Origin: Candidatus Dormiibacterota bacterium
GTDB lineage: Bacteria > Chloroflexota > Dormibacteria > Aeolococcales > Aeolococcaceae
Assembly (NCBI GenBank): GCA_003153125.1
Contig: PLWW01000123.1
Coordinates: 10,463-65,293, forward strand
Direction of reading: 5' to 3'
DNA: 54,831 nt
In this document: one piece after another, positions 24,464-52,937 of the stretch
Numbering within the stretch: the first letter of the stretch is position 1
Layout of the letters: every line of letters begins with the position of its first letter
Program-made: the position numbers and the translations under genes
Notes under the pieces: generated by a model
Told to the model about the DNA's origin: nothing
Database searches by the model: none
What the model saw: the letters and a program-made list of their open reading frames with translations, nothing else

Positions 24464-24509
24464 ATCATCTCCCCCTTCTGGTTGGCCAGCCTGAGATCCG
24501 CGCCGCCAC

Positions 24510-24780: not shown

Positions 24781-24927
24781 ATCAAGCGGACCTACCAGCC
24801 CAAGAAGAAGTACCGGCGCAAGACCCACGGGTTTCGCATCCGGATGTCGACACCCGGTGGACGCCAGGTGCTCAAGGCGCGGCGTCGCAAGGGACGCAAG
24901 CGCCTGACCCCAGCGCCTCCACGGTGA
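24781..24927 (+). CDS. rpmH: 50S ribosomal protein L34 (ATC start)
   Basis: (I)[41 protein letters not shown]; SD GGAG 8 nt upstream. Confidence 0.95.
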
Positions 24928-25319: not shown

Positions 25320-25600
25320 CCCGCCTCAGCCTCCTGCTGATCCGGGTCTACCGCGTGACCGTCGGTCCGCTGTTCGGGATGATGAGCAGCTGCCGGTACG
25401 AGCCAACCTGCTCGCAGTACGGCTACGCGTCGATCGAACGCTTCGGTGCACGGCGGGGTTGGTGGCTGGCCCTGCGACGGATCAGCAGATGCCACCCCTT
25501 CCATGAGGGCGGAATCGACCTCGTTCCCGACCAGTACTTGTCGTGGCGAGAGGCGCGCCGCCGCCGCCGCGCACCGCTGTCCGAGGGTTCCGCCCGATGA
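25316..25600 (+). CDS. yidD: Membrane protein insertion efficiency factor
   Basis: CRYEPTCSQY and RISRCHPF. Confidence 0.95.
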   Translation: MTRLSLLLIRVYRVTVGPLFGMMSSCRYEPTCSQYGYASIERFGARRGWWLALRRISRCHPFHEGGIDLVPDQYLSWREARRRRRAPLSEGSAR

Positions 25601-26634: not shown

Positions 26635-26658
26635 GCAGCGGAGGCTGAGGAGATCAAC

Positions 26659-27402
26659 GTGAACGACACCGAGCAGGCGCCGGCCCACTCCGCCGCGCCC
26701 GGCGTCGAGGGCACCGGCGTCACCGTCGACGAGGCCACGGCCACCGCCCTCGCCCAGCTCGGCGCGGAGCGTCACGAGGTCGTCGTCGACGTGATCTCCC
26801 GGGGTGGTGCGCGCCCGGCGCCGGGGGAGTACCTCTCGTCCAGTGCCGCCCGTGTTCGGGTGAGCCGTCTCGACGACCACACCGCTCGCGGCCGCGACCT
26901 GCTCGGCTCACTTCTCGAGGCCATGGAGATCCCGGCGCGCGTCTCGGTGCGTCGTGGCACCAGCCCTCGCGCGGGCGAGGCGGAGGCGCCACTGATCCTC
27001 GAGGTGTCCGGTGACGACCTCGGCCTGCTCATCGGCTGGCGCGGGGAGACGCTGCGGGCGCTCCAGACCACCCTCAACCTGATGATGGGCGACGACCACG
27101 CAGAGGGCCAGGGAGGTCGCCTCATCCTCGACGTCGAGCGCTACCGCGCACGCCGCGAGGACCAGGTCCGCGAGCTCGCCCAGCGGCTCGCGGAGCGCGT
27201 CAGGGTGAGCGGCGAGCGTTACACCCTCGACCCCATGCACGCCTACGAGCGCCGCATCATCCACCTGACCCTGCAGGACGACCCCGGGGTGCGCACCGAG
27301 AGCAGCGGCCAGGAGCCGGCGCGTCGCGTGGTCATCCATCCCACCGGCTCTTCCCAGGGTGGCCTGGCAGCCCGGCCGGAACGGGGGCGCGGGCGCTGGT
27401 AG
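26659..27402 (+). CDS. jag: Jag/KhpB (EloR) RNA-binding protein
   Basis: Jag_N region, KH (LIGWRGETLRALQ), R3H (ERRIIH). Confidence 0.92.
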   Translation: MNDTEQAPAHSAAPGVEGTGVTVDEATATALAQLGAERHEVVVDVISRGGARPAPGEYLSSSAARVRVSRLDDHTARGRDLLGSLLEAMEIPARVSVRRGTSPRAGEAEAPLILEVSGDDLGLLIGWRGETLRALQTTLNLMMGDDHAEGQGGRLILDVERYRARREDQVRELAQRLAERVRVSGERYTLDPMHAYERRIIHLTLQDDPGVRTESSGQEPARRVVIHPTGSSQGGLAARPERGRGRW

Positions 27403-27449
27403 CCACGGCCGCCGACCGCGGCCACGTCCGGACCATCCTGGACGGAGGA

Positions 27450-28685
27450 GTGCGCTTGCTCGCCGCCCCCATGCGTGAGCGCGCCTCGGTGAGCATCGCC
27501 TTCATGTTCGGCACCGGCTCACGCGTCGAGAAGCCCGACGAGTGCGGACTCGCCCACTTCATCGAGCACATGGTCTTCAAGGGTGGCGCGGCGTACCCCA
27601 CCGCGCGCCGGATCAGTGAGGCGATCGAGGGCGTTGGGGGCACCATCAACGCCTCCACGGACCGGGAGGCGACGATCTTCTGGGCCAAGGTCCCTGCCGA
27701 CCGTGTCGACGTCGCCGTGGCCGTTCTCGGCGACATGCTGCTCTCGCCATGCTTCCGCGAGGAGGACGTCGAGCGTGAGCGGCAGGTCGTGATCGAAGAG
27801 CTGCGCATGTACGAGGACAGCCCCCAGGACCACGTGCACACCCTCTTCGACGCCATCATGTGGCCGGACCACCCCCTCGGCTGGGACGTCGCCGGAACCG
27901 AGGCCACGGTCACGTCCTTCACGGCGGCGGACTGCCGCCGCCATCTGCGACGCCACTACCAAGGCCGCGACCTCGTCGTTTCCGTCGCCGGAGCTCTCGA
28001 CACCGACCGAGTGGCAGAACTGGTGACCGGCGCCCTGGCCGGCTGGCCCGTCCACGAAGGCTCTGCCGCCGTCCCTCTGCCCGCTGCGGATCCCACGGGC
28101 GCGGCGGTGAGCGTGCTCGACCGCCGCGCCGGACAGGCCAACATCGTGCTCGGCGCGCGCGCGCCCTCGTACCGCGATGAGCGCCGCTTCACCGCCGACA
28201 TCCTCAACGTCGTGCTCGGCGAGGGGATGTCGAGCCGGCTGTTCCTCGAACTGCGCGAGGAGCGCGCCCTCGCCTACGACGTGCATTCCTTTCTCACCAG
28301 GGTTGCCGACAGCGGGACCCTGGCCATCTCGCTCGGCTGCGAGCCCAAGCGCGCCCTGGTGGCAATCCGTGCCGCGGTCGACGAGCTGAGGCGGCTCGCC
28401 ACCGATCCTGTGCCGGCGGCAGAGCTGGAGAGGGCCAAGGAGTACGCACGCGGCCGACTCTCGGTCCAGCTGGAGAGCACATCGGCGCTGTGCAACCACC
28501 TCGGCCAGCAGGAGCTGCTGACCGGCGAGATCCTCCTCGCCGAGGACATCGCCGAGCGCCTTGTCGGCGTTGACGCCGAAGCGATCCGCTCCCTGGCGGC
28601 CGACATTCTCGGCGGCGGTCTGCGCGCCGCGGTGATCGGCCCCTTCCGCAAGCCCGACCCGTTCCTCGAGGCCCTCAACGCCTGA
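27450..28685 (+). CDS. M16 family zinc peptidase
   Basis: HFIEH inverted zinc motif, [12 protein letters not shown]. Homology appears to extend upstream to about 27396. Confidence 0.92.
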
Positions 28686-28761
28686 ACGCGACCCCGGCGG
28701 TGGCAGGGTGGCGGCGTTCGGATATGGTGGCCGTCGCGTCCATCCGCCTGTAGAGATCACC

Positions 28762-29223
28762 ATGCACACAGAGCGAACCCTGGTGCTGATCAAGCCCGAT
28801 GCGGTCCAGCGCGGGCTGATCGGCGAGATCATCACCCGCTTCGAGCGGCGCGGCCTCCACCCGGCCGCCATCAAGCTGATGACGGTCACCACCGAGCTTG
28901 CGGAGCGCCACTATGCCGAGCACCGCGAGCGGCCCTTCTTCCCCGGCCTGCTCGAGTTCATCACCTCGTCACCGGTGGTGGCGATGGCGTGGGAGGGCCC
29001 CGGCGCCGTGGCGCTCGTCCGCTCGATGATGGGCACCACCGACCCCGCCGGCTCCCCACCGGGCACCATCCGCGGTGACCTCGCGGTGAGCCTGGCGATG
29101 AACGTCATCCACGGCAGCGACTCGGTGGAGAGCGCCGCACGCGAGGTGTCCATCTTCTTCTCCGACGCTGAACTGGTCGACTGGGAGAACAGCGCCGCCG
29201 CCTGGGTCGTCGCCGAGGACTGA
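28762..29223 (+). CDS. ndk: Nucleoside diphosphate kinase
   Basis: [21 protein letters not shown]. Confidence 0.97.
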
Positions 29224-29243
29224 CCGCCCCTCGAGGCGGCCGT

Positions 29244-30008
29244 TCAGGCGCGAGCGGCGCCCGCGCGGTGACGCTGGCGCCGCCGCCGCCGCCACGACAG
29301 AAGGGCACCGCCCGGCAGCGCCAGGACGACTGCCGCTGCGGCCGGAGTGTCGAAGAGCAGGGCCGAGGGGTCGGTGACCAGCGTCGGCCCGCCGCCCAGC
29401 CCGAAGTGGGCGAAGGGCAGCACCCGCACGAATGCCTTGGCGAGGACGTTCTTGCGGGGAACGAGGCCGAAGCTTCTGGAGTCGCTGGACTTGTTGCGGT
29501 TGTCGCCCATCACGAAATACTCGCCGGCGGGGATGCTGATCGCCTCCGCAACCGACGATGCCGTGCCACCGGGGAGACAGCAGTAGTTCATCGTGTCCCA
29601 TGCCTCCGGGAGATACGGCTCCTTGACGCGCTGCCAGGGTCCGCCGCCGCCCGGCTTGATGAGCAGCGCCGTCGGCGTCTGCGCACCGTCGATCTCGAGC
29701 GTGTCGCCGGGAACGCCGATCACGCGCTTGATGAAATCCTTGGTGGGATCGGTCGGCGGGATGAGCACGACGATGTCCCCGCGCTGCGGATCCCCGAAGT
29801 AGTAGGAGATCTTGCTGGCGAGGAGAAGGTCGTTGTTCTGCAGGGTGCCGACCATGCTCTCGCCATCGACGCGCACCGTCTGGAGGGCGCTCCAGATGGC
29901 CACGTAGAGAACGAGCGCGATGATGACCACCTCGAGGACGTCACGGACGAGGCCGTGAGGGCGGCGCCCCCACCACGGCCTGGAGATCGGGGTGGGTTCT
30001 GGCTGCAC
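29244..30008 (-). CDS. lepB: Signal peptidase I
   Basis: GESM (Ser), FIKRVIG (Lys), GDNRNKSSDSR. Confidence 0.95.
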   Translation of the reverse strand: MQPEPTPISRPWWGRRPHGLVRDVLEVVIIALVLYVAIWSALQTVRVDGESMVGTLQNNDLLLASKISYYFGDPQRGDIVVLIPPTDPTKDFIKRVIGVPGDTLEIDGAQTPTALLIKPGGGGPWQRVKEPYLPEAWDTMNYCCLPGGTASSVAEAISIPAGEYFVMGDNRNKSSDSRSFGLVPRKNVLAKAFVRVLPFAHFGLGGGPTLVTDPSALLFDTPAAAAVVLALPGGALLSWRRRRRQRHRAGAARA

Positions 30009-30228
30009 GCGTCGTGATTATACGGAGGCCCCCCCGCGCCGCCCGCGCGGAACCGCAGCGACCCCGGCGGCGAGCCGCCGTGATGGCGCCGGCACGGTCA
30101 CCGCTGCAGTGATCGATGCAGCGGCGCCCCTCCCCAGGCGGGCGCTGACGTCGTGGTGTCCACGCTGCCACAATGGACAGCGGCTCCGCGGGAGCAGTGC
30201 GTCATCCAGACAACAGGCGAGGAACACG

Positions 30229-30858
30229 ATGGCTCTGCTGACACAAACGCCGTACAAGGCACGCGAGTTCGACCTCTCCGGCCTGGTCGGCATCTCCGAC
30301 AGGACGCTCGAGACCCACTTCGGTCTTTATGCCGGGTATGTCAAAAACACGAACACACTCAACGAGCAGCTCGTTGAGCTGACCCGGGCCGGCAAGGTGG
30401 GAAGCCTGTCGTACGCTGAGCTCACCCGCCGGCTCGGCTTCGAATACAACGGCATGGTGCTGCACGAGTGGTACTTCGGCAACATGACCAAGAACGGTAA
30501 CGGCGGCGAGATCTCCAGCTCCTCCGACCTCGGCCGCGCCCTCGGCGAGTCGTTCGGCGACCTCGAGACCTGGCGCAAGGACTTTGTCGGTGTGGGCGGC
30601 ATGCGCGGCGTCGGCTGGGCGGTCACCTATCTCGACCCAGCCACGGGCCGTCTCAGCAACCACTGGATCACCCTGCACGAGGATGGCAACATCGCCGGCT
30701 TCAAGCCGATCGTGGTGATGGATGTCTGGGAGCACGCCTTCCTGCTCGACTACAAGCCGGCGGAGCGCCCCAAGTACATCGAATCGTTCCTCGCCAACCT
30801 CGACGTCAGCGCCGCAGAGGCGAGACTGGCGGGGACGCTCGGCCGGCCGGTCGGCTGA
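30229..30858 (+). CDS. Fe/Mn superoxide dismutase
   Basis: Ligands TH, LHE, DVWEHA. Confidence 0.92.
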   Translation: MALLTQTPYKAREFDLSGLVGISDRTLETHFGLYAGYVKNTNTLNEQLVELTRAGKVGSLSYAELTRRLGFEYNGMVLHEWYFGNMTKNGNGGEISSSSDLGRALGESFGDLETWRKDFVGVGGMRGVGWAVTYLDPATGRLSNHWITLHEDGNIAGFKPIVVMDVWEHAFLLDYKPAERPKYIESFLANLDVSAAEARLAGTLGRPVG

Positions 30859-30871
30859 GCACTCACGCAGG

Positions 30872-31795
30872 TCAGAGCGGCGCGCCGCCCAGCTTGAGGT
30901 AGAGCGCATCGAGGTCCTCGTCGTCGTGGAATGCCACGACCACGCGGCCTCCCCTGCCCCTGCGTTCGACGTCCACCGGCAACCCGACGGCGGCCTCCAG
31001 GCCGCGCCGAAGCGCCTCGTCGTCGGGACTGAGGGGGGGCCGCGCAATGGCGGCGCGGGGTGACGGCGCACGTCCCTGCGCAGCCTGCACGGCGGTTTCC
31101 GTCTGGCGCACGGACCAGCCCTGTTCGATTGCTCGCCTCGCCATCAACTCCTGCCTCTCGTCGTCGCTCAGGCCGAGCAGGGCGCGAGCGTGGCCGGCGC
31201 TGAGCGTCCCCTGGGCGACGGCTCGCTGTATCGGGGCAGGGAGGGCGAGGAGTCGGATGGTGTTGGAGATGGCTGGACGGCTGCGTCCGAGGCGCAGGGC
31301 GATGGCCTCGTGCGACATCCCAAAGGTGTCGGCCATCCGCGAGTAGGCGGCCGCCTCCTCCATGGGGCTGAGGTCGGCGCGGGCGAGGTTCTCGGTGAGG
31401 GCGGTCTCGAGCGACTGCCGCGCCGACTCCGCCGCGGGGCGGACGATCGCCTGGATCAGGGGCAGGCCGGCGAGGCGCACCGCGCGAAGCCGTCGTTCGC
31501 CGGCCACGAGGCGGTACGGCGGCCCGGCACCCTCCACGACGATGGGATGCAGGAGCCCGTGGGTCCGGATGGATTCCCCCAGGGCGACAAGGGCGGCGGC
31601 GTCAAAATCACGGCGCGGTTGCTCCGGGTTGGGCTCCACAAGCGCGGGATCGACCTCGATCAGGGCGGCGACGTCGCCCGGGGGATGGGCGGGGCGCTCG
31701 GCGGCTGCGTCAGGAGCCGGGCCGAGCAGGGCGTCCAGGCCGCGGCCGAGGCCCCGGCGCCGTGGACCGCTGTACCCGGGGTGCTGTGTGGTCAC
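30872..31795 (-). CDS. parB: Chromosome partitioning protein ParB
   Basis: GLGRGL, NPEQPR, AGERRLRA, ENLARADL, HTH. Confidence 0.96.
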   Translation of the reverse strand: MTTQHPGYSGPRRRGLGRGLDALLGPAPDAAAERPAHPPGDVAALIEVDPALVEPNPEQPRRDFDAAALVALGESIRTHGLLHPIVVEGAGPPYRLVAGERRLRAVRLAGLPLIQAIVRPAAESARQSLETALTENLARADLSPMEEAAAYSRMADTFGMSHEAIALRLGRSRPAISNTIRLLALPAPIQRAVAQGTLSAGHARALLGLSDDERQELMARRAIEQGWSVRQTETAVQAAQGRAPSPRAAIARPPLSPDDEALRRGLEAAVGLPVDVERRGRGGRVVVAFHDDEDLDALYLKLGGAPL

Positions 31796-32601
31796 GTCGC
31801 CGCCCCCGCCGCGAGCGCGCTGCGCTGTCGCTCCCGTTCGGCCAGGCGCAGGTCGAGGTTGGCGGCCAGCTCCGCGTAGGCCAGCGCGCCTCGGCAGGTG
31901 GGGTCGTAGAGGTCCACGGGCAGGCCGTGGCTGGGGGCTTCGCTGAGGCGGACGTTGCGCGGGATGAGGGGAAGCAGGAGCTCGTCGGCGAACCTGGCCC
32001 TCACCTCGTCGACGACCTGGTGAGCCAGGGCGAGGCGACCGTCGAACAGCGTCATCACGATGCCCGCGATGCGCAGCTGGGGGTTGAGCTCACGGCGGAG
32101 CAGGCTGAGCGTGTGGGTCAGCAGGCCCAGGCCCTCGAGAGCGTAGAACTCGCACTGGATGGGCACGAGCAGCGCGCCGGCCGCGGTGGCGGCGTTGACG
32201 GTGAGCAACCCCAGGCTGGGCGGGCAGTCGATGAGGATGTAGTCGACGTTGTCGACGCCCTCGAGCGCATAGGCAAGACGGCGCTCGCGAACCGGAAGCT
32301 CGATCATCTCGATCTCGGCGCCGGCCAGGTTGAGGTCGGCCGGGACGAGCTCGAGGCCGGGCACCACCGTCTGGATGCGCGCCTCCGCGATGGGCCGGCC
32401 GGACACGATCACGTCGTAGCTGGTGCCATGCACAGCCGAGCGATCGACCCCCAGGCCCGAGGTGGCATTGGCCTGAGGATCGATGTCGATGATGAGCACC
32501 CTCCGCCCCTTCGCCGCCAGGGCGGAGCCGACGTTGATGGTGGTCGTCGTCTTGCCGACGCCCCCCTTCTGATTGGCAACGGCCAGGACATGCGGAGCCA
32601 C
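31792..32601 (-). CDS. parA: Chromosome partitioning ATPase ParA/Soj
   Basis: NQKGGVGKTTT, DPQANAT, DCPPSLG, LSEAPSHG. Confidence 0.97.
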   Translation of the reverse strand: MAPHVLAVANQKGGVGKTTTTINVGSALAAKGRRVLIIDIDPQANATSGLGVDRSAVHGTSYDVIVSGRPIAEARIQTVVPGLELVPADLNLAGAEIEMIELPVRERRLAYALEGVDNVDYILIDCPPSLGLLTVNAATAAGALLVPIQCEFYALEGLGLLTHTLSLLRRELNPQLRIAGIVMTLFDGRLALAHQVVDEVRARFADELLLPLIPRNVRLSEAPSHGLPVDLYDPTCRGALAYAELAANLDLRLAERERQRSALAAGAAT

Positions 32602-32670
32602 CGCCGGATTATCGGTTGCGGCGACGGCGTGACGCTGCCGCCTCGGGGGCCAGGAGGTTCGGCAGCGGAG

Positions 32671-32758
32671 TTATCCACCGTATCCCCAACCCGGAGGACT
32701 CGCCCTGGATGGCTCGCCGAGATCAAAATGGGGCTCCGGGAAGCCCACCTGTGGAAAA
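32671..32758. promoter_or_regulatory. DnaA-like boxes upstream of parA
   Basis: TTATCCACC (32671) and TGTGGAAAA (32750), each one mismatch from TTATCCACA. Confidence 0.55.
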
Positions 32759-32813
32759 CTCGTGGCGTCGGAGCGTTTGCAGGTGGCGCCGGTAGCGGAG
32801 GGGCAGGAGCACG

Positions 32814-32829
32814 CGTTCCACGTGGAACC
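32814..32829. other. parS centromere-like site
   Basis: Perfect palindrome core GTTCCACGTGGAAC matching the parS consensus GTTNCACGTGNAAC, about 210 bp upstream of parA. Confidence 0.85.
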
Positions 32830-32881
32830 GCGCGGTTCGGCGGCGCGCCGTGCGGTCGACGCCGGCTCGTACAATCCTCGG

Positions 32882-33529
32882 GTGCCCGCCTCCCGCGCTC
32901 ACCAGTGGCGTTTTGTGGTTGCCGCGCCCCCTCGCGAGGTCTTCGCGGTCATGGAGCAGATGATCGGCACGCCCCCATACCGGTTCGAGGTCTTGGGCGA
33001 GAACAGCGCGAGGATCGTCGAGTTCCAGCGCAACAGCCTGGTGGGGCACTGGCGCCGCGTCGACGGCGGCGGCCGCGGCGCCGGCCGCGAGCGCCAGCCA
33101 ACACGCAACCAGCGTTGGGTGACCTGCTCGGCGGTCGTGGAGGACGCCGGCACGGTCATCGAGATGGAGGCAAGCAAGGGCCGCGGCACACTGCCGCGCG
33201 CCCTCCAGTTGATAGGAGTTCTCAGCCGGGGAGCGCACGATCCGCGCACCATCTACCGAACCCGCCAGATCCCGCCGGGCCCGGTCAGCCTCGTGGCCTC
33301 CTGGGCCGGCATGGGTTATGCCCTCTACGACGCCCCTGAGCGAGCGGCGCCCCGCGGCACCGCGGTGTTCACCGCGACACGGATGGCAGCGATCCCGGGT
33401 GGCACCGCGGAGTTTGTCAAGGTGCGTCTCAGCGATGGCACCGAGGGCTACGTGGAGCGCGACCAGGTGGTGTCAGCCCCCGACCGGGCCACCCGCGAAG
33501 CAGGTCTCGAGGCGGCTCGCAACGTCTGA
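32882..33529 (+). CDS. Hypothetical protein with a C-terminal SH3b-like domain
   Basis: C-terminal FVKVRLSDGTEGYV; TACAAT 6 nt before GTG 32882. Confidence 0.65.
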   Translation: MPASRAHQWRFVVAAPPREVFAVMEQMIGTPPYRFEVLGENSARIVEFQRNSLVGHWRRVDGGGRGAGRERQPTRNQRWVTCSAVVEDAGTVIEMEASKGRGTLPRALQLIGVLSRGAHDPRTIYRTRQIPPGPVSLVASWAGMGYALYDAPERAAPRGTAVFTATRMAAIPGGTAEFVKVRLSDGTEGYVERDQVVSAPDRATREAGLEAARNV

Positions 33530-43421: not shown

Positions 43422-44228
<807 letters not shown>

Positions 44229-44236
<8 letters not shown>

Positions 44237-44696
44237 GTGATGCCTCCGGGTGTGGGTCGGAGGGGGCCATCGCCGCGAGCAGCGACTGGTCGTGGATCAA
44301 CTCGGCAAGGGTGGTCTGGCGCAGCACGGCGTCGATGCTCTCCTTGAGGCGCAGCCACAGCCCCCGGGAGGCGCACTCGCCGTCGCGGCCGCAGCTGCCG
44401 GCGACGTAGTCGGAGGACACGCATTCCACCGGGGACACCTCGCCCTCGACTGTGTGCACCACCTCGAGCACGGAGATCAGCTCGGGGGCGCGGGCCAGGG
44501 TGTACCCGCCGTGCACCCCGCGGGTGCTCTCGACGAGGCCGCCACGGCGGAGCTGACCGGCGAGCTGCTCCAGGTAGGCGAGCGGGAGGTGCTCGACGCG
44601 CGCCACCTCAGCGATGCTCAGGGGCCCGGTGCCGTAGGCTCGGGCGAACTCCGTCATCATCCGCAGGCCGTAATGGGCCTTGGAGCTGACCCGCAT
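44229..44696 (-). CDS. Rrf2 family regulator (IscR/SufR-like)
   Basis: YLEQL, STRGVHGGY, three Cys (VEC, GSC, GEC). Alternative leaderless start at 44777. Confidence 0.92.
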
Positions 44697-44761
44697 CGAG
44701 AAGGACGTGCTGTGATCGGTTCGCTGGCCCGTCTCGGAGGACCGTGGGCGTGCTGCGTGGC

Positions 44762-44788
44762 TAATTCCGACCGTCATGGTCAGAATTA
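44762..44788. promoter_or_regulatory. Rrf2/IscR-type operator, copy 2
   Basis: TAATTCCGACC-N5-GGTCAGAATTA overlapping the TATAAT of the rrf2-suf operon. Confidence 0.75.
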
Positions 44789-44845
44789 TACGCCGACGCT
44801 CAGGAGCGGGATCATCCGACATACTCGAATGAGGTCTGCCGCCAC

Positions 44846-45886
44846 GTGAGCGTACCCGCCGTCGACCTCGCCCCCGCCGCCCCCGCCGTCCTGCCGGTCG
44901 ATGGGGCGTCGACGGGCAGCCGCAGGCGGCGTGTGATGGTCGCTCGGATCACCCGCGTCGCCTCCGTCGTGGTCAGCGCTGGGGCGCTGCTGATCCTGCT
45001 GCGGCGCGTCGACCTCCCCTCAGCCCTGCACACCGCCGCCGCCGAGCCGTGGCCGCTCCTGGGCGCCACCGTCGCCCTCAACGCCGTGGCCACGTGGCTG
45101 CGGGCGGGACGCTCGCAGATCGTGCTCAACACCCTCGGCCATCGCGTCAACCGGGTGAGGATGGTCGGCACCCAGCTCGCCGGCCAGACACTCAGCTGGG
45201 TCAGTCCCGTGGCCGCCGGCGACTTCGTGCGACCGTACCTCTGGCGCAGCCGTGACGGTGTGCCCCTGACCCCGGGGATCGTCACCGTGCTCTACGAGCG
45301 CATCTTCAGCTTCGGTCAGCTGGCCGTGGTCGGCTCGGCGTGTATCGCCCCGTTCGCGTTCGGCGGGGGCCTCCTCGCCGTGGCCGCCGCCGCCGGTGCC
45401 TGCCTGCTGGCCGCGCCCTGGCTGCTCGCCCGACTCATCGGCGCCGGCACCGACGCGGACCAGGCCGCTGTGTCGTCGGGCTGGCGTGATCGCCTCGTCC
45501 ACGCCGCCGGGCAGCTCTGGCGGCTGGCCGGCGACGGCCGCCTCAGCCTCCGCTTCACCGGGCTGACCATCGCCGTTGTCACCGTCAGCGCGCTGCAGAT
45601 CGAGCTCCTCGCCTCGGGGATCGGCATCGCCCTGCCGCTGTGGATCGCCGCCGCGGCGTTCGCTCTCTCCCAGGTCATCGGCAGCGCCTCCAGCCTTCCC
45701 TTCGGCATCGGACCCGCGGACGCCGTCGTCGTGGCGCTGCTTGTGCACGCCGGCACCGGCCCGGCCGGAGCCCTTGCCATCACCCTGCTGTCCAGGCTGA
45801 CGGTCACCGTGCCGCTCGGCCTCGCCGGGGCTCTCGCCTACATGCGGCTGGGCCGCCCCCCAGGGACCGAGGTCACCGCCCCGTGA
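44846..45886 (+). CDS. LPG_synthase_TM / flippase-like membrane protein
   Basis: GDFVRPY, YERIF, LPFGIGPAD, SRL motifs; multiple TM helices. Confidence 0.82.
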   Translation: MSVPAVDLAPAAPAVLPVDGASTGSRRRRVMVARITRVASVVVSAGALLILLRRVDLPSALHTAAAEPWPLLGATVALNAVATWLRAGRSQIVLNTLGHRVNRVRMVGTQLAGQTLSWVSPVAAGDFVRPYLWRSRDGVPLTPGIVTVLYERIFSFGQLAVVGSACIAPFAFGGGLLAVAAAAGACLLAAPWLLARLIGAGTDADQAAVSSGWRDRLVHAAGQLWRLAGDGRLSLRFTGLTIAVVTVSALQIELLASGIGIALPLWIAAAAFALSQVIGSASSLPFGIGPADAVVVALLVHAGTGPAGALAITLLSRLTVTVPLGLAGALAYMRLGRPPGTEVTAP

Positions 45887-46857
45887 GGCGACCCGAGCAT
45901 GTGGCCAGGGTCGTGGTGGTCGGCGGCGCGGGCTTCATCGGCACCCACGTCGTCGAGCGCCTGGCGGCCGCCGGGTGGGCGATCCTCGTCGTGGACGACA
46001 GCTCTCACCCCTGTGGCGTCCCTCTCCCCGGCTCAGTCGACCTGCTCTTGGCCGGCGGCGGCAGCGACGAGGCGCGCGCTGCGATGGAGCGATTCCGGCC
46101 CGCCGCCCTTGTTCACCTCGCCGCCAAGGGCGGCGTCAACCGCGCCCTCCGCGACCCGGGCGGCCACGTCGCCGACGTGCTCTCCCAATCGGTGGGGTGC
46201 TTCGCGTCCGCGGCCGCGGCCGGCTGCTCGTCGATCGTCATCGCGTCCTCGGGGGGAGCCGTGTACGGGGACCCGCGCGTCCTCCCCGCCAGCGAGCGAC
46301 TCAGGCCAGCTCCCCGGTCCGCATACGGTGCCGAGAAGCTCTGCGAGGAGACCTATCTCGCCACCGTCGCCCAGCGCGGGGTGCGCACCATGGCGCTCCG
46401 CTACGGCAACGTCTACGGGCCGCGCCAGGATGGAACGGGCGAGGCTGGGGTTGTGGCGATCACCGCGACCCGGCTCCTGGAAGGGCTCGCGCCGGTGGTT
46501 TTCGGCGACGGCCTCCAGACCCGCGACTTCGTCTACGTCGAGGACGTCGCCGAGGCCACGGTGGCCGCGCTGGGCAGCAGGCGCAGCGGCCCCGTGAACG
46601 TCGGCACGGGCAGAGAGACCAGCGTCCGCGATATCGTCAACGGCTTGGTCCAGCTCACAGGCTCCACCGCCGGCATCGAGTACCGGGCGGCACGCGATGG
46701 AGAGGTGCGCCGCGCCGCGCTCGACGCGTCGCGGGCACAGCGGTGGCTGGGCTGGCGCGCGCAGACCAAGCTGATCGATGGGCTGGCACGCACGGCGGCA
46801 TTCTTCGCCGCTCGCGGTCCGGCCGCTGCAACCAACGTTTCCGGGGGGACCACCTGA
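45883..46857 (+). CDS. NAD-dependent epimerase (GalE-like SDR)
   Basis: GGAGFIG, SSGGAVYG, YGAEK, GLQTRDFVYV. Confidence 0.9.
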   Translation: MRRPEHVARVVVVGGAGFIGTHVVERLAAAGWAILVVDDSSHPCGVPLPGSVDLLLAGGGSDEARAAMERFRPAALVHLAAKGGVNRALRDPGGHVADVLSQSVGCFASAAAAGCSSIVIASSGGAVYGDPRVLPASERLRPAPRSAYGAEKLCEETYLATVAQRGVRTMALRYGNVYGPRQDGTGEAGVVAITATRLLEGLAPVVFGDGLQTRDFVYVEDVAEATVAALGSRRSGPVNVGTGRETSVRDIVNGLVQLTGSTAGIEYRAARDGEVRRAALDASRAQRWLGWRAQTKLIDGLARTAAFFAARGPAAATNVSGGTT

Positions 46858-46858
46858 C

Positions 46859-48112
46859 ATGCGGATCATCGTTCTCGGCGCCGATGGTTACCTCGGCTGG
46901 CCCACCGCGTTGCACCTCTCGGCGAAGGGGCACGACGTGATCGCGGTCGACAACCTGGTGCGGCGGCGCTGGGACCGCCGCTGCGGCACCAACAGCCTGG
47001 TGCCGATCACGTCGATGGAACGGCGAATCGCCCGCTGGACGGAGTTGAGCGGCCGGCCCATCGCGTGGCACAAGCTCGACCTCTGCGACGCCGACGCCGT
47101 CACCGCCCTTGTGGAGGAGACGTCGCCGGACGCCGTCGTGCATTTCGCCGAGCAGCGATCGGCGCCGTACTCGATGATCAGCCGCGGCCACGCGGTCGAG
47201 ACGCAGGTCAACAACGTGGTCGGCACCCTCAACCTGCTGTTCGCGATCCGCGACCACGCCCCCAACTGCCACCTCATCAAGCTGGGCACGATGGGGGAGT
47301 ACGGTACCCCGAACATCGACATCGAAGAGGGGTTCATCGAGATCACGCACAACGGGCGCAGCGACCGGCTGCCCTTTCCCAAGGTGCCGGGATCGATGTA
47401 CCACCTCAGCAAGGTGCACGACAGCCACAACATCCACTTCACCTGCCGGATCTGGGGTTTGCGCGCCACCGACCTCAACCAGGGGGTGGTGTACGGGGCC
47501 CAGACCAAGGAGACCACGCTGCACCGCGACCTCGCGACCCGTTTCGACTACGACGGGATCTGGGGCACCGTTCTCAATCGCTTTTGCGCGCAGGCGGCCA
47601 TCGGCCTCCCCCTGACCGTGCACGGCAAGGGCGGCCAGACGAGAGGGTTCCTCGACATCCGCGACACGGTCGCGTGCATCGAGCTCGCCGCCCTCAACCC
47701 GCCGGCGGCCGGGGAGTTCCGGGTGTTCAACCAGTTCACCGAGCAGTTCAGCATCCTCGACCTTGCCGCGCGCGTCCAGGAAGCGCGTGCCGCCCACGGC
47801 CTCGAGACCGACATTGTCCACCAGCCCAACCCGCGCGTCGAGCTGGACACCCACTACTACAACGCCAAGCACCAGCACCTGCTCGACCTCGGCCTCCACC
47901 CGCATGCCCTCGCGGACACGCTCATCGAGGACGTGATCCACGTGGTGCAGCGCCACAAGTCGCGGGTGCGCCCCCACACCCTCGCAGCCACGGTCGACTG
48001 GCGCACGGGTGGCGACGTCTACCACGCACCCGCCGCCACCAGCGTCGCACCCCGCGAGATCGTCGGCGAGGTCACCGCGCGGGTGCCGGTGGGGGCTGCC
48101 GCGGCGCGCTGA
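46859..48112 (+). CDS. sqdB: UDP-sulfoquinovose synthase
   Basis: DGYLGWPTAL, HFAEQRSAPYSM, KLGTMGEYG, YHLSKVHDS, TDLNQGVVYG, FRVFNQFTE. Confidence 0.95.
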   Translation: MRIIVLGADGYLGWPTALHLSAKGHDVIAVDNLVRRRWDRRCGTNSLVPITSMERRIARWTELSGRPIAWHKLDLCDADAVTALVEETSPDAVVHFAEQRSAPYSMISRGHAVETQVNNVVGTLNLLFAIRDHAPNCHLIKLGTMGEYGTPNIDIEEGFIEITHNGRSDRLPFPKVPGSMYHLSKVHDSHNIHFTCRIWGLRATDLNQGVVYGAQTKETTLHRDLATRFDYDGIWGTVLNRFCAQAAIGLPLTVHGKGGQTRGFLDIRDTVACIELAALNPPAAGEFRVFNQFTEQFSILDLAARVQEARAAHGLETDIVHQPNPRVELDTHYYNAKHQHLLDLGLHPHALADTLIEDVIHVVQRHKSRVRPHTLAATVDWRTGGDVYHAPAATSVAPREIVGEVTARVPVGAAAAR

Positions 48113-48835
48113 TCACCGCCGCGCCGGCAGCGACCTCCGCATCGTCCAGCGGAAGACGATCAGCTCCTTGATGGCACGCGCGATGGCGCGGGGGCGTGCC
48201 CCCGACCGCCGTCCCGCACGCCGTGCGTGGTGGGGGACGGCGTGCTGGGCGATCCGCCACCCGGCGTGGCGTGCCTTGTAGTACAGCTCGGTGTTGATGA
48301 GGGCGCTGTGGGCGTGGAGCTCCATCGAGTCCAGCACCTCACGGCGCATCACCTTCATGGCGCAGTCGATGTCGCGGTACGGCAACCGGTAGAGCACCAG
48401 CACCAGGGTGTTGAACACCCAGCTGACCACCGACCGCATGGCGGCGTCCTGGCGCTCCTCGCGCCATCCCCCGACGAGATCCGCGCCGGCCAGCAGAGGC
48501 ACGAGGATGGCGAAGTCGGCGACCTCGAACTGGCCGTCGGCGTCTGTGAACGCCACGTAAGTGAGGCGGGCGGCCCGCAGGCCGTCACCGACAGCGGCGC
48601 CGTAACCGCTCTTGCGCTCGTGACGCACGATGCGCAGGTCGACGCCGAGGTCGGCCGCAAGCGAGGTGGCCAGCTTCCCACTGCCGTCGGTGCTGCCGTC
48701 GTCGACGATCACCACCTCGAAGCGCTCGGCGAGGGTGGGCAGGGTTGCCGCCAGGTGTGGCAGCAACCAGGTGACGTTCTCGGCCTCGTTGTGGACGGGG
48801 AGGACCAGGCTGAGCTCGGGCAGGCGTGTGGTCAT
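48113..48835 (-). CDS. GT2 polyprenol-phosphate glycosyltransferase (DPM1/ArnC-like)
   Basis: LPVHNE, VDDGSTD, GYGAA, DADGQF, DIDCAMK. Confidence 0.9.
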   Translation of the reverse strand: MTTRLPELSLVLPVHNEAENVTWLLPHLAATLPTLAERFEVVIVDDGSTDGSGKLATSLAADLGVDLRIVRHERKSGYGAAVGDGLRAARLTYVAFTDADGQFEVADFAILVPLLAGADLVGGWREERQDAAMRSVVSWVFNTLVLVLYRLPYRDIDCAMKVMRREVLDSMELHAHSALINTELYYKARHAGWRIAQHAVPHHARRAGRRSGARPRAIARAIKELIVFRWTMRRSLPARR

Positions 48836-48845
48836 GGCGCGCTGA

Positions 48846-50036
48846 TCATCCGGAGATGGCGATGGCCGTGGTGAGGCCGAAGATGGAGAGCGAGATCGCG
48901 CCGGCGACGTAGGCGGCCGCGGCGACGACGATCCCGCGCCTCCGCCTGGCCCCTCGCGCCACGCCCCACACCAGCAGCAGGAGCGGACCCGCCGCCGCCA
49001 CGAGCAGGTAGCGTCCCTGCGGCTGGAACACGACCACGACGGCGTTGGCCAGCGAGAGCGCCAGCGCGCCGGCGGCGGCGAGCGCGTACGCGACCACCGC
49101 CGTCTGCCGTCCGCGCGGCCAGCCCGGCCACGCGCGCACGAGGAGAACGACGCCGACGACCAGGCCGGCGAGGAGTGCCGCCGCGAAGAACGCCATCAGG
49201 GCGCGCCCCGCAGGCGGCAGGATCAACGGCGACCCCTGGTAGCGCTCCGGTGTCAACAGCCCGTACATCGTCTGGGAGAGGAACACCCGCAGCTGCGCCA
49301 GGTTGCGCAGCCGGCTGGGAGGGACGCCGAGCGGCGTCAGCGGGGGCAGGAGGCGGTGGAAGGCGACCAGGTTGCGTGCGTACCACCAGCCCGAGATGGC
49401 GGCCACGGGCACCGCCACGGGCACGAGATGACCCGGCAACAGGTGACCACGCCAGTGCCAGAGGGCCACGGCGCCGAGCACGATGATCAGCGGGAGGTCG
49501 GTCTCCTTGGAGATCAGTCCCACGCCGACGCTCACCCCGATCAGCCAGAGGAGGCCGCGCCTGGGCAGGTCGGCGAGCGCCACCTGGGTGGTCACCAGCA
49601 GCAGCAGGGCGCCCGCCGCGGCCGCCAGGCTGTCGTCGGTGATCGACGCCGACACGAACTGAAAGCCGGGCAGCAGCGCCAGGGCTGCCGCCGTGCTCAC
49701 CGCCAGCCAGGGCCGGCGCGGCGCCAGCAGCCACACGATGCGCGCCACCAGGAGGACGGCGAGGACGCCGAGGAGGATCGACAGGAAGCGCAGGGCCACC
49801 GGGGGTGCCTGGATGCGCAGCAGGGCGGCCGCCATCAGGTAGTAGAGCGGAGGCTGCTGCCTCTCCGGGACCAGCGCCCCGGGAAGCGAGGCGTGGCCGG
49901 CGATCAGCTGCGCATAGGTGAGGTGCGAGTGTTCGTCGGCTGAGCTTCCGACGGGGATGCTCAGCGCGTACGTGACGGCAAAGACGGCGAAGACGGCCAT
50001 GGCCGCGACCAGGGCCAGAGCCGGGGCACGCCTCAC
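48846..50036 (-). CDS. GT-C fold membrane glycosyltransferase (ArnT/PMT_2/DUF2142-like)
   Basis: DEHSH after TM1, QQPPLYY, WWYARN, QGRYL; many TM helices. Confidence 0.8.
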   Translation of the reverse strand: MRRAPALALVAAMAVFAVFAVTYALSIPVGSSADEHSHLTYAQLIAGHASLPGALVPERQQPPLYYLMAAALLRIQAPPVALRFLSILLGVLAVLLVARIVWLLAPRRPWLAVSTAAALALLPGFQFVSASITDDSLAAAAGALLLLVTTQVALADLPRRGLLWLIGVSVGVGLISKETDLPLIIVLGAVALWHWRGHLLPGHLVPVAVPVAAISGWWYARNLVAFHRLLPPLTPLGVPPSRLRNLAQLRVFLSQTMYGLLTPERYQGSPLILPPAGRALMAFFAAALLAGLVVGVVLLVRAWPGWPRGRQTAVVAYALAAAGALALSLANAVVVVFQPQGRYLLVAAAGPLLLLVWGVARGARRRRGIVVAAAAYVAGAISLSIFGLTTAIAISG

Positions 50037-51238
50037 CCGCCGGCTGCTGTCAGGGCGCGCCGCTTCGGTGGCTTGCCCGCAGACGCCGTCGCTGTGTCGA
50101 TGGCCTCGACCAGGTGGTCGATGGCATCATCGACGTCGGTCGCGAGGGTGCCACGCCCCATGCTGAGGCGGAGCAGCGCGGTCCTGCCCGGGTCCTCGCC
50201 CATCGCCGCGAGCACGTGTGACGGCCGCGCGGCGCCGCTGGCGCAGGCCGATCCGCCCGACACCTCGACGCCGGCGCCGTCGAGGGCAGCGACCAGCGCC
50301 TCGGCGGAGGCGTCATCGACGAGCAGCGCGCTCATGTTGGGAAGCCGCTGCGCCGCCCGTGCCGCCACCCGCACGTGCGCCGCCCGCTCGAGGACGGCCG
50401 CCTCGAGGCAGTCGCGGAGCGCGCCCAACCGCGTCGCCTCGTCCTCCCGCTCGCCCTCGACCAATTCGGCGGCGACCGCGAAGCCGGCGATCGCGGCCAC
50501 GTTCTCGGTGCCACTGCGGCGCTCCCGCTCCTGGCCACCCCCATCCATCTGCGCGGTGAGGTGCGTGCCCCAGCGCGCGTACAGCACTCCACAGCCCTTG
50601 GGGCCGTAGCACTTGTGGGCGGAGAGGCTGAGCAGGTCGACGCCGAGCGCCCGGGGATCCACCGCGAGGCGACCCAGCGCCTGGACGGCGTCGGTGTGCA
50701 CCAGCGTGCGCGGGTTGGCCAGGCGCACAAGCCGGGCGGCGTCGGCGACGTCCTGGACGGCGCCGACCTCGTTGTTGGCGAGCATCATCGACACCAGCGT
50801 GGTGTCATCGCGCACAGCGGCGGCGACGCGCTCCGGGTCGACGCGCCCGGCGGCGTCGCAGCCCACCACGGTCACCTCGGCCTCGCCCCGCGCGGCCAGC
50901 GCCGCCGCGGTGCCGAGAACTGCCTCATGCTCGACGGCGCTGACGACCACGTGGCGGCCGCGCTCGCCACCCCACCTCTGCAGCGCGCCGCGCACGGCGA
51001 GGTTGTCGGCCTCGGTGCCGCCGCTGGTGAACGTGAGCTCACGTGGCGCGCAGCCGAGGACGGCGGCGAGCCGGTCACGGGCGTCGTCGATGGCGGCCCG
51101 CGCGCGCCGCCCGCGATCGTGCGCCGAGGACGGGTTTCCCCAGTGCTCGCGGAGGAACGGAAGCATCGCCTCGACCACCTCGGGTGCGGGTGGCGTCGTG
51201 GCCGCGTGGTCGAGGTAGATGCGCCGGGCCGAGATCAG
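50033..51238 (-). CDS. IscS/NifS-type cysteine desulfurase
   Basis: YLDHAATTP, GNPSS, LSAHKCYGPKG, SGGSAC; start uncertain (CTG overlapping the upstream stop). Confidence 0.92.
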   Translation of the reverse strand: MISARRIYLDHAATTPPAPEVVEAMLPFLREHWGNPSSAHDRGRRARAAIDDARDRLAAVLGCAPRELTFTSGGTEADNLAVRGALQRWGGERGRHVVVSAVEHEAVLGTAAALAARGEAEVTVVGCDAAGRVDPERVAAAVRDDTTLVSMMLANNEVGAVQDVADAARLVRLANPRTLVHTDAVQALGRLAVDPRALGVDLLSLSAHKCYGPKGCGVLYARWGTHLTAQMDGGGQERERRSGTENVAAIAGFAVAAELVEGEREDEATRLGALRDCLEAAVLERAAHVRVAARAAQRLPNMSALLVDDASAEALVAALDGAGVEVSGGSACASGAARPSHVLAAMGEDPGRTALLRLSMGRGTLATDVDDAIDHLVEAIDTATASAGKPPKRRALTAAGG

Positions 51239-52317
51239 CTCATCCCCAGGGAGCCCCAGAGCTCGAGCTTGTTGCGGACCGCCTCGATGACTGCGGCGGT
51301 GAACTCGTCGGTGAAGGAGTGGCCGCCGAGGTCGGCGGTGCGCGTTCCGGCCCGCACCGTCTCGAAAGTGGCCTCGTACATGGCGCGCGACGCCAGCTTG
51401 CACCGAGGGTCGACTGAAAAGCTGAGCAGGGAGGCGGCGGCGAGGATCATGGCCATGGGGTTGGCGATGTTCTTCCCGAGTAGAGCCGGGGCGGTGCCGT
51501 GGGGGGCCTCGGCCATCACCACGTGCGGCCTTGTCGAGTCCTCCGTGAAGCCGAGCAGAAGTGACTCGGCGCCGGCGATGCTGCCGAAGAGCTGCAGGAC
51601 GAAATCGCTGAGGCAGTCGCCGTCACGATTCAGCGCCGGGATGACCAGGGCGTCGCCGCCGTGGGTGAGGAGCAGAGCGTAGGTGGCGTCGATCAACTGG
51701 GGCTCGTAGGCCACGTCGGGATAGCGCTGCGCGGCGGCGTCCATCTCCTCCTTGAGCATCCCCTCGTACACGGGCGACACGGTGAACTTGGGGCCGCCGA
51801 AGACGCGCGCGTGGGTGCGGCGCGCGTGCGCAAAGGCGAACTCCGACACCGCCCGGCACGTCGACCGTGAGATGTGCTCGGTGCGGAATGCGACCTCGTC
51901 GTCGCCGGACCCCTCGCGCCACTCCGTGGCGTTGTAGGAGTCGTCGACGGCCATGCGGACCACGCTGATGGGCGCGCTCACGCCGGCGACCGACGGAACC
52001 CCGGGGATGCGACGCCCGGTGCGCAGGATCACTTTGCCGCCGACCCGCTTGCGCAGCAGTGCGTTGGGGCTGCCCACGTCGCCGGCTTGCTCAGGGGTCA
52101 CCGTGGCCGCCTTCAGCCCGTAGCCACAGGCCACCATGGCGTCGGCCGCGTCGAGCACCACGGCGTTGGCGGTGGCCCGGCGGTTCTCGAGGGAGAGGTC
52201 GAAATGACGCAGCTCGAGGTCCGCGCCGATCACCTCGGGAGCGATCACCCGCAGGGCCTCCTCGAGGAGCTCCTGCCCGGTCTGGTCGCCGCCGAGCACG
52301 GCGATAGTCGTGGTCAT
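51235..52317 (-). CDS. Isocitrate/isopropylmalate dehydrogenase family protein
   Basis: GDQTGQE, NRDGDCLSD, EAPHGTAP, NPMAMILA, TADLGG. Confidence 0.9.
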   Translation of the reverse strand: MTTTIAVLGGDQTGQELLEEALRVIAPEVIGADLELRHFDLSLENRRATANAVVLDAADAMVACGYGLKAATVTPEQAGDVGSPNALLRKRVGGKVILRTGRRIPGVPSVAGVSAPISVVRMAVDDSYNATEWREGSGDDEVAFRTEHISRSTCRAVSEFAFAHARRTHARVFGGPKFTVSPVYEGMLKEEMDAAAQRYPDVAYEPQLIDATYALLLTHGGDALVIPALNRDGDCLSDFVLQLFGSIAGAESLLLGFTEDSTRPHVVMAEAPHGTAPALLGKNIANPMAMILAAASLLSFSVDPRCKLASRAMYEATFETVRAGTRTADLGGHSFTDEFTAAVIEAVRNKLELWGSLGMS

Positions 52318-52403
52318 CGCGCCACAGCGTAGCCGCGTTCCCACGCTTCACGCAGCGCGGCGACGACCGCTGCGCAACGCGCGCGGCTGCCTATGATCCG
52401 CGC

Positions 52404-52937
52404 GTGCCGTCCCCCTCGCCGACCACCACCGCAGAAGAGCGCCGGCCGGCGGCGATCCTCGCCATCTACAGCTGGGACATGGTCCTCGCCCTGCTCGCCC
52501 TGCTCGGTGCCCTCGCGGCCTTCGGCGGGCAGGCCACGGTGGGGAGCAGGACGGTCAGCGTGAGCCTCGGCGAGCAGGTGCTCGCCGCCGTCGAGTCGGC
52601 GTCGTTCGCGGGGCTGCTGATCATCCTCGCGACGCTGCTGACACGGCGGCGGCGCTGGGTGCGGCGCGCTCAGATCGTCACCCTGGCGACTGCGATCGCG
52701 CTCGGGGCGGTGTCGCTGCTGCTCGCCGCCGTCGTCCCCGGCCAGGGCCTCCAGGCGAGTGCTCTGACCGCGCTCCTCGTTCTCGTGGTCGACGCCGCGG
52801 CGATCCTGGCGCTGACCGGGCAGAAGGTGATCGGCTGGTACGAGCAGGACGGCGCCATGCCCCGTTACATCAGCGGGACGATCGCCTTCTGGGCGATCAC
52901 CAGCGCGGTGCTCATCGTGCTCCAGACCCTGCGCTGA
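52404..52937 (+). CDS. Hypothetical membrane protein (about 5 TM)
   Basis: Hydrophobic helices; TATGAT 6 nt before GTG. Confidence 0.7.
   Translation: MPSPSPTTTAEERRPAAILAIYSWDMVLALLALLGALAAFGGQATVGSRTVSVSLGEQVLAAVESASFAGLLIILATLLTRRRRWVRRAQIVTLATAIALGAVSLLLAAVVPGQGLQASALTALLVLVVDAAAILALTGQKVIGWYEQDGAMPRYISGTIAFWAITSAVLIVLQTLR

Follow-up and report, generated by a model that had tools for sequence, protein, structure and literature searches.

A cluster of five genes at positions 44,846 to 50,036 of a 54,831-nucleotide stretch of DNA from a Candidatus Dormiibacterota bacterium (GenBank assembly GCA_003153125.1, contig PLWW01000123.1; the whole stretch is called the window here) probably encodes a polyprenyl-phosphate route that takes sulfoquinovose, or its 4-epimer, to an acceptor outside the cytoplasm. 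The cluster joins SqdB, the uridine diphosphate (UDP)-sulfoquinovose synthase, with a GalE-like epimerase, a family 2 glycosyltransferase (GT2), a flippase-like membrane protein, and a membrane glycosyltransferase of the GT-C fold. In this soil bacterium SqdB is accompanied by genes for glycosylation through a lipid carrier, not by the customary sulfolipid synthase, which suggests an undescribed way of placing sulfoquinovose on the cell surface. The window comes from contig C8 of the genome G000, a draft metagenome-assembled genome (MAG) of 3.02 Mb in 130 contigs, which is 86% complete. Loci and genomes of its relatives are numbered with L and G, respectively; the nearest SqdB relatives are named as Candidatus Dormibacterota/Dormibacteria MAGs.

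The gene map combines Pfam and NCBIfam matches with the calls of a gene finder that was trained on the codon usage of the window. The five-gene set listed in a preliminary description of this DNA is real and lies at the following positions (lengths in amino acids, aa):

44846-45886, plus strand: LPG_synthase_TM (PF03706, MprF-type "flippase-like") membrane protein, 346 aa, the proposed flippase
45901-46857, plus strand: GalE-like UDP-hexose 4-epimerase of the short-chain dehydrogenase/reductase (SDR) type (PF01370), 318 aa
46859-48112, plus strand: SqdB, UDP-sulfoquinovose synthase (SQD1 match), 417 aa
48113-48835, minus strand: GT2 of the polyprenyl-phosphate glycosyltransferase type (PF00535), 240 aa, the proposed polyprenyl-phosphate-sulfosugar synthase
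48846-50036, minus strand: compact GT-C of the PMT_2 type (PF13231, PF02366), 396 aa, the proposed extracytoplasmic transferase

The sqdB gene starts with the ATG at 46859, a single base past the epimerase stop codon, and meets the GT2 gene stop to stop, with TGA and TCA touching at 48110-48115. The gap-free convergence on sqdB reported in the preliminary description is therefore correct for the GT2 and incorrect for the GT-C, which is not a neighbour of sqdB. Position 50036 is the GT-C start codon and overlaps the stop codon of an upstream NifS-like gene by 4 bases. Neither a promoter nor a terminator was found in a scan of positions 44000-52500.

In the proposed scheme, SqdB would convert UDP-glucose and sulfite to UDP-sulfoquinovose in the cytoplasm, and the GalE-like SDR would either turn this product into its 4-epimer, UDP-6-sulfo-fucose, or balance UDP-glucose and UDP-galactose. 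The soluble GT2 of the ArnC/DPMS type would load the sulfosugar onto polyprenyl phosphate at the inner membrane face, the MprF-type LPG_synthase_TM protein would bring the lipid-linked sugar to the outer face, and the GT-C would transfer the sugar to an acceptor of the envelope.

The window SqdB is, by its sequence, an orthodox enzyme of the plant/bacterial SQD1 type. It aligns with Arabidopsis SQD1 (1qrr) at 534 bits (E 2.5e-159), gapless over residues 3-385, and keeps T, Y, H, and K at the positions aligned with T145, Y182, H183, and K186 of SQD1, which we take to be the catalytic Thr, the Tyr-x-x-x-Lys pair, and the adjacent His of the SQD1 structure papers. The score with the NCBIfam equivalog NF041015 (489 bits over model positions 1-372) is below the cut-off of 575 bits; the model appears narrow, since just 1 of 14 control genomes passes it. 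The window gene is the sole strong SqdB copy in G000. The adjacent epimerase (PF01370, 142 bits) has its nearest solved relatives among the short UDP-glucose 4-epimerases, namely 4zrm (188 bits), 7ys8, and 2p5u.

The GT2 (PF00535, 82 bits) is, as judged from its sequence matches and its predicted structure, of the polyprenyl-phosphate glycosyltransferase type. Its best NCBIfam families are ArnC (70.6 bits), PpgS (54 bits), and AglJ (50 bits), all scoring below their cut-offs, and GpgS is reached at 33 bits. The best solved sequence found with phmmer is ArnC (E 5.6e-16), followed by DPMS and GtrB. With the predicted model (pLDDT 91.5), ranks 1-19 of the Foldseek ranking as printed, which omits two ranks, are all occupied by ArnC, GtrB, or DPMS (TMq 0.60-0.81), and a second tier consists of glucosyl-3-phosphoglycerate synthases (GpgS) and MpgS (TMq 0.63-0.70). 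The acidic residues of the DXD-type motifs (D45, D46, D98, D100) are invariant across 18 sequences, in an alignment that leaves out three candidate rows from L097, L100, and L111. The protein has no transmembrane (TM) segment and ends with a helix (residues 215-233), thus the anchoring by a C-terminal TM helix that characterizes ArnC and GtrB is absent; a basic amphipathic C-terminal helix is conserved among the GT2 homologs. Polyprenyl-phosphate GT2s without TM segments exist, as exemplified by DPM1 and PpgS.

The GT-C exceeds the cut-offs of both PF13231 (33.9 against 26.1 bits) and PF02366 (27.6 against 22.7 bits). A sequence search returned no solved relatives of this protein. With its model (pLDDT 91.2, pTM 0.92), the 8 Foldseek matches at E of at most 0.001, and nearly all those listed below them, are GT-C enzymes, including Pmt4, AglB/OST, ArnT (TMq 0.59-0.61), AftB, Emb, ALG9, and PimE. 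The sequence and Foldseek matches thus agree with the enzyme types first proposed for this pair, a GT2 of the polyprenyl-phosphate kind and a membrane partner with the GT-C fold. Just past the first TM helix (residues 3-26), D34 and E35 are invariant in 38 sequences and represent the acidic residues expected in the first extracytoplasmic loop. To our knowledge, every characterised GT-C uses a polyprenyl-linked donor. The family is small and nearly restricted to Dormibacteria, with 46 proteins at E of at most 1e-10. In size the protein resembles the small members PimE and ALG3, and from the absence of a large extracytoplasmic domain, which is a weak hint, we would guess that the acceptor is a membrane-anchored glycan or lipid.

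The flippase-like protein, with about eight hydrophobic segments, matches PF03706 at 100 bits (cut-off 33.4), and scores 39.1 bits with TIGR00374 (cut-off 43.2) and 28.7 bits with bifunc_MprF. No meaningful match to solved structures was obtained with either the single sequence or a 17-sequence profile, and since no solved relative was found, we infer from its sequence family that it may move a lipid-linked sugar across the membrane. G000 has six PF03706 matches in total. A second pair of a flippase-like (PF03706, 152 bits) and a GalE-like gene is found on contig C6 of G000 (L114:7549-9503), with no GT2 nearby.

The five genes are kept together in relatives. A scan with one genome per species gave 80 SqdB loci, among them 19 of the Dormibacteria type (some with Chloroflexota labels, and single ones with Micrarchaeaceae or Eisenbacteria labels), and a GT2 homolog is located near SqdB in all 19. 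Pfam annotation covered 16 of these; L017, L019, and L040, near-duplicates of L016 and L037, were omitted and carry the same genes by tblastn. In the vicinity of SqdB or the GT2, a flippase-like PF03706 gene and an epimerase gene were each counted in 14 of the 16 annotated loci. A GT-C-type gene was counted in 12, be it PMT_2, DUF2142, DUF2079 (the two DUF families belong to the GT-C clan), or a 74%-identical homolog. As the gene set recurs in relatives with its order and strand shuffled, the arrangement is more than chance. The closest relatives (L004-L006) share a wider synteny, which includes the suf, NifS, and Iso_dh genes. The loci labelled as a Micrarchaeaceae archaeon and as Eisenbacteria (L010, L011) have a Dormibacteria-type cluster with SqdB 70-71% identical, and these labels are probably binning or naming errors.

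Joint presence and absence was followed in a further 150 genomes of the class, in which SqdB was called at E of at most 1e-50. SqdB is present in 77 of them, with a GT2 homolog within 6 kb in 55, elsewhere in the genome in 20, and not listed in 2. A GT2 at least 48% identical to that of the window occurs in 60 genomes, all 60 of which have SqdB. In the genomes without SqdB, the best GT2 identity is 44% among the 36 with a listed match, 29 weaker matches being unlisted. Both SqdB and the GT2 are missing from G013 and G126, that is, from two of the four genomes of the window's genus. The linkage check proposed in the preliminary description therefore came out in its favor. Some of the genomes are flagged as unpublished (SqdB-positive: G029, G045, G063, G089, G090, G138, G148; others: G079, G100, G101, G122, G124); by subtraction, the counts without them are 51 of 70 for the linked GT2 and 54 of 54 for SqdB accompanying a GT2 at least 48% identical. 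These numbers depend on the identity thresholds chosen and on a sampling of one genome per species; since related genomes are not independent, no P value is attached.

In a quick maximum-likelihood tree (IQ-TREE, 67 rows, SH-aLRT support), all 24 GT2s of SqdB-positive genomes (20 linked and 4 unlinked) form one clade with a support of 99, and 20 GT2 paralogs of SqdB-less genomes group separately. The paralogous GT2 adjoins a second GT2 in 17 of its 20 loci; tblastn with the cluster proteins found no flippase-like or GT-C homologs at these 20 loci, and a weak SDR match (25-27% identity) at 4. Domain fusions connect the same partners: L018 has a natural in-frame fusion of the GT2 with a PMT_2-type GT-C (767 aa), and 20 longer GT2 homologs include 12 GT2 fused with PMT/PMT_2, one with LPG_synthase_TM, and one with GtrA. 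The GT2, the flippase candidate, and the GT-C are thus co-located and co-inherited, in the manner of a three-component glycosylation system.

Of the 150 class genomes, 71 have an epimerase homolog with no less than 48% identity, and 68 of these are SqdB-positive. In the four sqdB-unlinked genomes examined, the epimerase gene adjoins the GT2 gene in three and is ~7 kb away from it in the fourth, and it does not lie beside SqdB; this adjacency mildly favours a role of the epimerase between SqdB and the GT2. Used as a single query, the flippase-like protein gave matches in 23 of the 150 class genomes, a search that misses divergent copies recognised by Pfam in the loci, and a PF03706 family search gave 3-9 copies in many class genomes among the matches listed (237 further ones are unlisted).

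An association of SqdB with a GT2 recurs in an actinobacterial-type order, which was surveyed as a replicate in 121 genomes around the genome of L041 (G162; one genome, G221, is unpublished). SqdB at no less than 59% identity is present in 44 of the 121. The GT2 of this order has 355 aa, is N-terminally extended, and belongs to the AglJ/PpgS type; at no less than 63% identity it is found in 42 genomes, each of which has SqdB (42 of 42), and the two genes share a contig in 40 of these and are at most 4 kb apart in 29. In the 67 genomes without a SqdB match, the GT2 identity never exceeds 43%. Since the replicate GT2 is ~30% identical to that of the window and differs from it in architecture, the SqdB-GT2 association arose or persisted separately in the two lineages.

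Outside Dormibacteria, the genes within 900 bp of SqdB were scanned in 56 of the 61 loci. The neighbours comprise PF00535 GT2 (20 loci), PMT_2 (6), GT4 (4), and GT21-like genes (2), as well as YfhO (L078), GtrA (L081), GT8, and MGDG_synth, each in one locus. An N-terminal extension is present in 15 of the 20 SqdB-adjacent GT2s, with DUF2304 detected in three. Four of the GT2s, one of them at the GtrA locus L081, were typed with NCBIfam, and all score best with the models of AglJ, PpgS, and dolichyl-phosphate hexose transferase; for one of the four, the nearest solved protein is DPMS. The PpgS model scores 79-99 bits with the actinobacterial SqdB-linked GT2s. In three loci labelled as delta proteobacterium (L030, L031, L035), SqdB is flanked on both sides by ordinary polysaccharide-type GT2s of ~320 aa, which hints at sulfoquinovose in the repeat unit of a polysaccharide assembled in the cytoplasm.

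The absence of SqdX and SqdD from the window, asserted in the preliminary description, was confirmed, as there is no GT4 or GT8 family among its 63 scanned open reading frames, and the search was extended to the whole genome. As stand-ins for SqdX, the SqdB-adjacent GT4 genes from Chloroflexi-labelled loci (L020, L025, L028) and from G083 were used. By tblastn they reach at most 82 bits and ~30% identity in G000. A profile built from four SqdB-adjacent GT4s (A1) gives 233-599 bits in 17 class genomes and at most 147 bits in the rest. The best A1 match of G000 is partial (121 bits) and adjoins an inositol-1-phosphate synthase gene; the SqdB-carrying congeners have 130-135 bits. The 17 genomes with a strong A1 match consist of 11 SqdB-positive and 6 SqdB-less ones, and for the latter reason not all of these strong GT4s can be SqdX. 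Queries for GT8 (SqdD-like) and GT21 gave no match in G000; thus, neither an SqdX-like nor an SqdD-like gene was found in the 86%-complete genome, nor was a match to STT3/AglB (PF02516). In G083, where sqdB is present in three copies (L088-L091), one of the sqdB-flanking GT4s is SqdX-like, with 174-196 bits to the Chloroflexi-labelled ones, and the third sqdB lies near polysaccharide genes.

A glycosyltransferase gene that is missing from the preliminary account of the window is located at 15917-17077. It encodes an MGDG_synth and a GT28 C-terminal domain and is likely a glycolipid synthase. This gene was considered as an alternative synthase of sulfoquinovosyl diacylglycerol (SQDG), a role that its distribution does not support: 145 of 151 class genomes carry it, irrespective of SqdB.

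Several observations weigh against the route through polyprenyl phosphate. The computed evidence fixes no donor sugar for the GT2, and we infer the sulfosugar from the company the gene keeps. A nearby GT-C is missing from 4 of the 16 annotated loci, related genomes are not independent samples, and G000 is an incomplete draft. In family f2 the GT2 is near sqdB in none of 14 genomes (in G143 a single contig carries both, 677 kb from each other). A closer look at two f2 genomes showed the GT2 still accompanied by the epimerase in both G143 and G033, and by a PMT_2 gene as well in G143. In G083 two of the three sqdB genes are flanked by GT4 genes, and the set of flippase-like, epimerase, GT2, and PMT_2 genes is on another contig. 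A strong SqdX-like GT4 is carried by 11 of the 77 SqdB-positive class genomes. Three SqdB-less genomes of one genus (G125, G137, G146) retain an epimerase homolog with 54-56% identity, and flippase-like/GalE-like pairs recur in SqdB-less genomes as well as on contig C6 of G000; since it is found without SqdB, this pair is not specific for a sulfosugar.

Part of this evidence could be explained if the set carried an ordinary hexose, for example galactose provided by the GalE-like enzyme, and SqdB were a neighbour feeding another, unrecognised transferase. The kinship of the epimerase with ordinary UDP-glucose 4-epimerases, the separation of the set from sqdB in f2, G025, and G083, and the SqdB-less pairs and epimerase homologs would all fit, yet the GT2 clade occurs only with SqdB (60 of 60 genomes in the class and 42 of 42 in the unrelated lineage), including the cases in which the two genes are unlinked, both genes are gone together in two congeners, and the searches of G000 revealed no further candidate that might use UDP-sulfoquinovose. 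We therefore regard a hexose cargo as rather unlikely. The sulfoquinovose might instead end in a glycerolipid, SQDG, made by a non-canonical synthase, either the GT2 or the GT28-type protein, with the MprF-type protein flipping the lipid. SQDG is the usual bacterial fate of the SqdB product, MprF-type domains are known from lipid translocation, and in L070 a distance of 45 bp separates SqdB from an MGDG_synth-like gene that has 31% identity to the window's GT28 gene. This explanation is unlikely in view of the presence of the GT28 gene in nearly the whole class whatever the SqdB status, the similarity of the GT2 in sequence and fold to polyprenyl-phosphate transferases and not to diacylglycerol glycosyltransferases, and the GT-C partner, at times fused with the GT2, which would have no role in SQDG synthesis.

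The lack of a TM segment in the GT2, together with the second-tier GpgS/MpgS folds and the NCBIfam score for GpgS, would also be compatible with the synthesis of a small sulfonated solute, such as sulfoquinovosyl-glycerate, by a soluble enzyme. Such a product is very improbable, as ArnC, DPMS, and GtrB outrank GpgS (TMq up to 0.81), the basic amphipathic C-terminal helix is conserved, and a membrane setting is indicated by the linkage and by the fusions with GT-C, flippase-like, and GtrA domains. That the genes are adjacent for historical reasons, with no functional link, is scarcely credible: the wider synteny of L004-L006 could be read in this way, but across families the set is kept with its order and orientation shuffled, the genes are present or absent together, and the pattern recurs with a different GT2 in another phylum-level lineage. 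The computational tests named in the preliminary description, i.e. the search for sqdX and sqdD, the linkage in relatives, and the enzyme type, thus support its reading of the cluster as a lipid-carrier system.

By analogy, the polyprenyl-phosphate route would work like the Arn, Gtr, CsbB/GtcA/YfhO, and PpgS systems, but its proteins remain under all of their equivalog thresholds. The Arn system (ArnC/ArnE-ArnF/ArnT), which handles undecaprenyl-phosphate aminoarabinose for lipid A, follows the same logic of sugar tailoring, GT2 loading, a flippase, and an external GT-C; the GT2 matches ArnC best in both sequence and fold, and for the GT-C, ArnT ranks among the best folds. Unlike in Arn, the sugar of the cluster would come from SqdB, the GT2 is devoid of the C-terminal TM helices of ArnC, the flippase candidate belongs to the MprF/LPG_synthase_TM family whereas ArnE/F are small EmrE-like proteins, and the GT-C has 396 aa and no periplasmic domain. 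No equivalog cut-off is reached. The mycobacterial PpgS (Rv3631)/Rv3632/Rv3779 system modifies arabinogalactan with galactosamine, the donor being made via a 4-epimerase. It has in common with the cluster a short GT2 of ~240 aa without TM segments, a membrane protein, a GT-C, and a GalE-type epimerase preparing the donor; the differences are the low scores with the PpgS model (54 bits for the window GT2 and 79-99 bits for the actinobacterial ones, all far under the cut-off of 370) and the donor, which in the cluster would be a sulfonated 6-deoxyhexose. The GtrA/GtrB/Gtr* and CsbB/GtcA/YfhO systems divide the work among the same three roles. GtrB is one of the top folds matched by the GT2, SqdB is found beside GtrA (L081) or YfhO (L078), and one GT2 homolog is fused with GtrA. 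Those systems carry glucose or N-acetylglucosamine; in the cluster and its relatives, the flippase candidate is MprF-type and the GT-C is of the PMT_2/DUF2142/DUF2079 type.

The SQDG pathway (SqdB-SqdX/SqdD) shares SqdB, and an SqdB-adjacent GT4 is indeed present in L020, L025, L028, and G083; in the cluster, the linked transferases are instead a polyprenyl-phosphate GT2 and a GT-C, with no SqdX/SqdD-like gene found. In archaea, the sulfoquinovose glycans of Sulfolobus are Agl3-dependent. The archaeal glycans with sulfonated sugars are N-glycans transferred by AglB, in contrast to the situation in G000, with no STT3/AglB match and an SqdB of the SQD1 type. Published work describes 6-C-sulfo-fucose in the N-glycans of Thermoplasma and sulfoquinovose in glycans of Sulfolobus and Haloferax (MeSQ-Hex repeats in the latter) (PMC11407970, PMC8241124). 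Both sulfoquinovose and its 4-epimer are thus usable as glycan building blocks (PMC11407970, PMC8241124). Full-text searches, which do not cover subscription journals, returned no description of bacteria that use sulfoquinovose through a lipid carrier or in connection with a GT-C.

Sulfoquinovose is regarded as a sugar that belongs to photosynthetic membranes (as SQDG) and to a small number of archaeal N-glycans. The soil lineages described here are not photosynthetic, and their SqdB is linked to machinery of the polyprenyl-phosphate GT2 and GT-C kind. In our judgement the chances are even that Dormibacteria and the actinobacterial-type order both load sulfoquinovose or 6-sulfo-fucose onto polyprenyl phosphate and thereby build a sulfonated, phosphate-free anionic component of the envelope; the phosphate-free anionic surface of the preliminary description is a plausible idea, and this reading, if it holds, suggests that phyla which are poorly known and mostly uncultured have a new anionic component in their envelopes. 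If true, this would be the first polyprenyl-phosphate sulfosugar, a fate of bacterial sulfoquinovose besides SQDG, and a new donor for the three-component glycosylation scheme. It would also imply a pool of soil sulfoquinovose that does not come from photosynthetic membranes, as a microbial source for sulfoglycolytic soil bacteria.

Other genes of the window are as follows (the first three from the same Pfam, NCBIfam, and codon-usage map):

44229-44696/44822, minus strand: Rrf2 regulator, at the head of the suf operon
50033-51178, minus strand: NifS-type cysteine desulfurase-like gene (PF00266), upstream of the GT-C, uncertain as a member of the system
51235-52317, minus strand: Iso_dh gene
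15917-17077: the MGDG_synth/GT28 glycosyltransferase gene described above

The NifS-like gene (PF00266, 230 bits; TIGR03402, 393 bits against a cut-off of 531) is kept beside the cluster in only the three closest loci, L004-L006. In five loci of other phyla (L053, L054, L064, L077, L082) SqdB is directly preceded by an Aminotran_5 gene and followed downstream by an N-terminally extended GT2. The upstream genes of L053 and L077, the two that were checked, exceed the cut-off of TIGR01976 (cysteine desulfurase-like), a family that differs from that of the window NifS-like gene. The desulfurase-like genes might supply the sulfur donor for SqdB. A scan of G000 for phosphoadenylyl sulfate/adenylyl sulfate (PAPS/APS) reductase (PF01507), sulfite reductase (PF01077), and cysteine dioxygenase (PF05995) gave no match; since 23 of the 35 family genomes do have PF01507, its absence may reflect the incompleteness of the draft (86% complete).

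Metatranscriptome-labelled contigs from three runs in two studies cover parts of all five genes with 92-99% identity. They are assembled, originate from relatives, and may include DNA carry-over, and were not counted as proof of expression.

Elsewhere in the window, two N6/N4 DNA methylase genes are located close together on opposite strands, at 5060-5815 and 7760-8683, and no restriction enzyme was recognised near them by Pfam. The region 18000-33000 is that of the chromosomal origin, with dnaA (23033-24430), dnaN (21655-22689), and parA/parB (30872-32601), all on the minus strand, and it also holds the genes for rnpA, yidD, yidC, a KH/R3H protein, a recF-like protein, and DciA.

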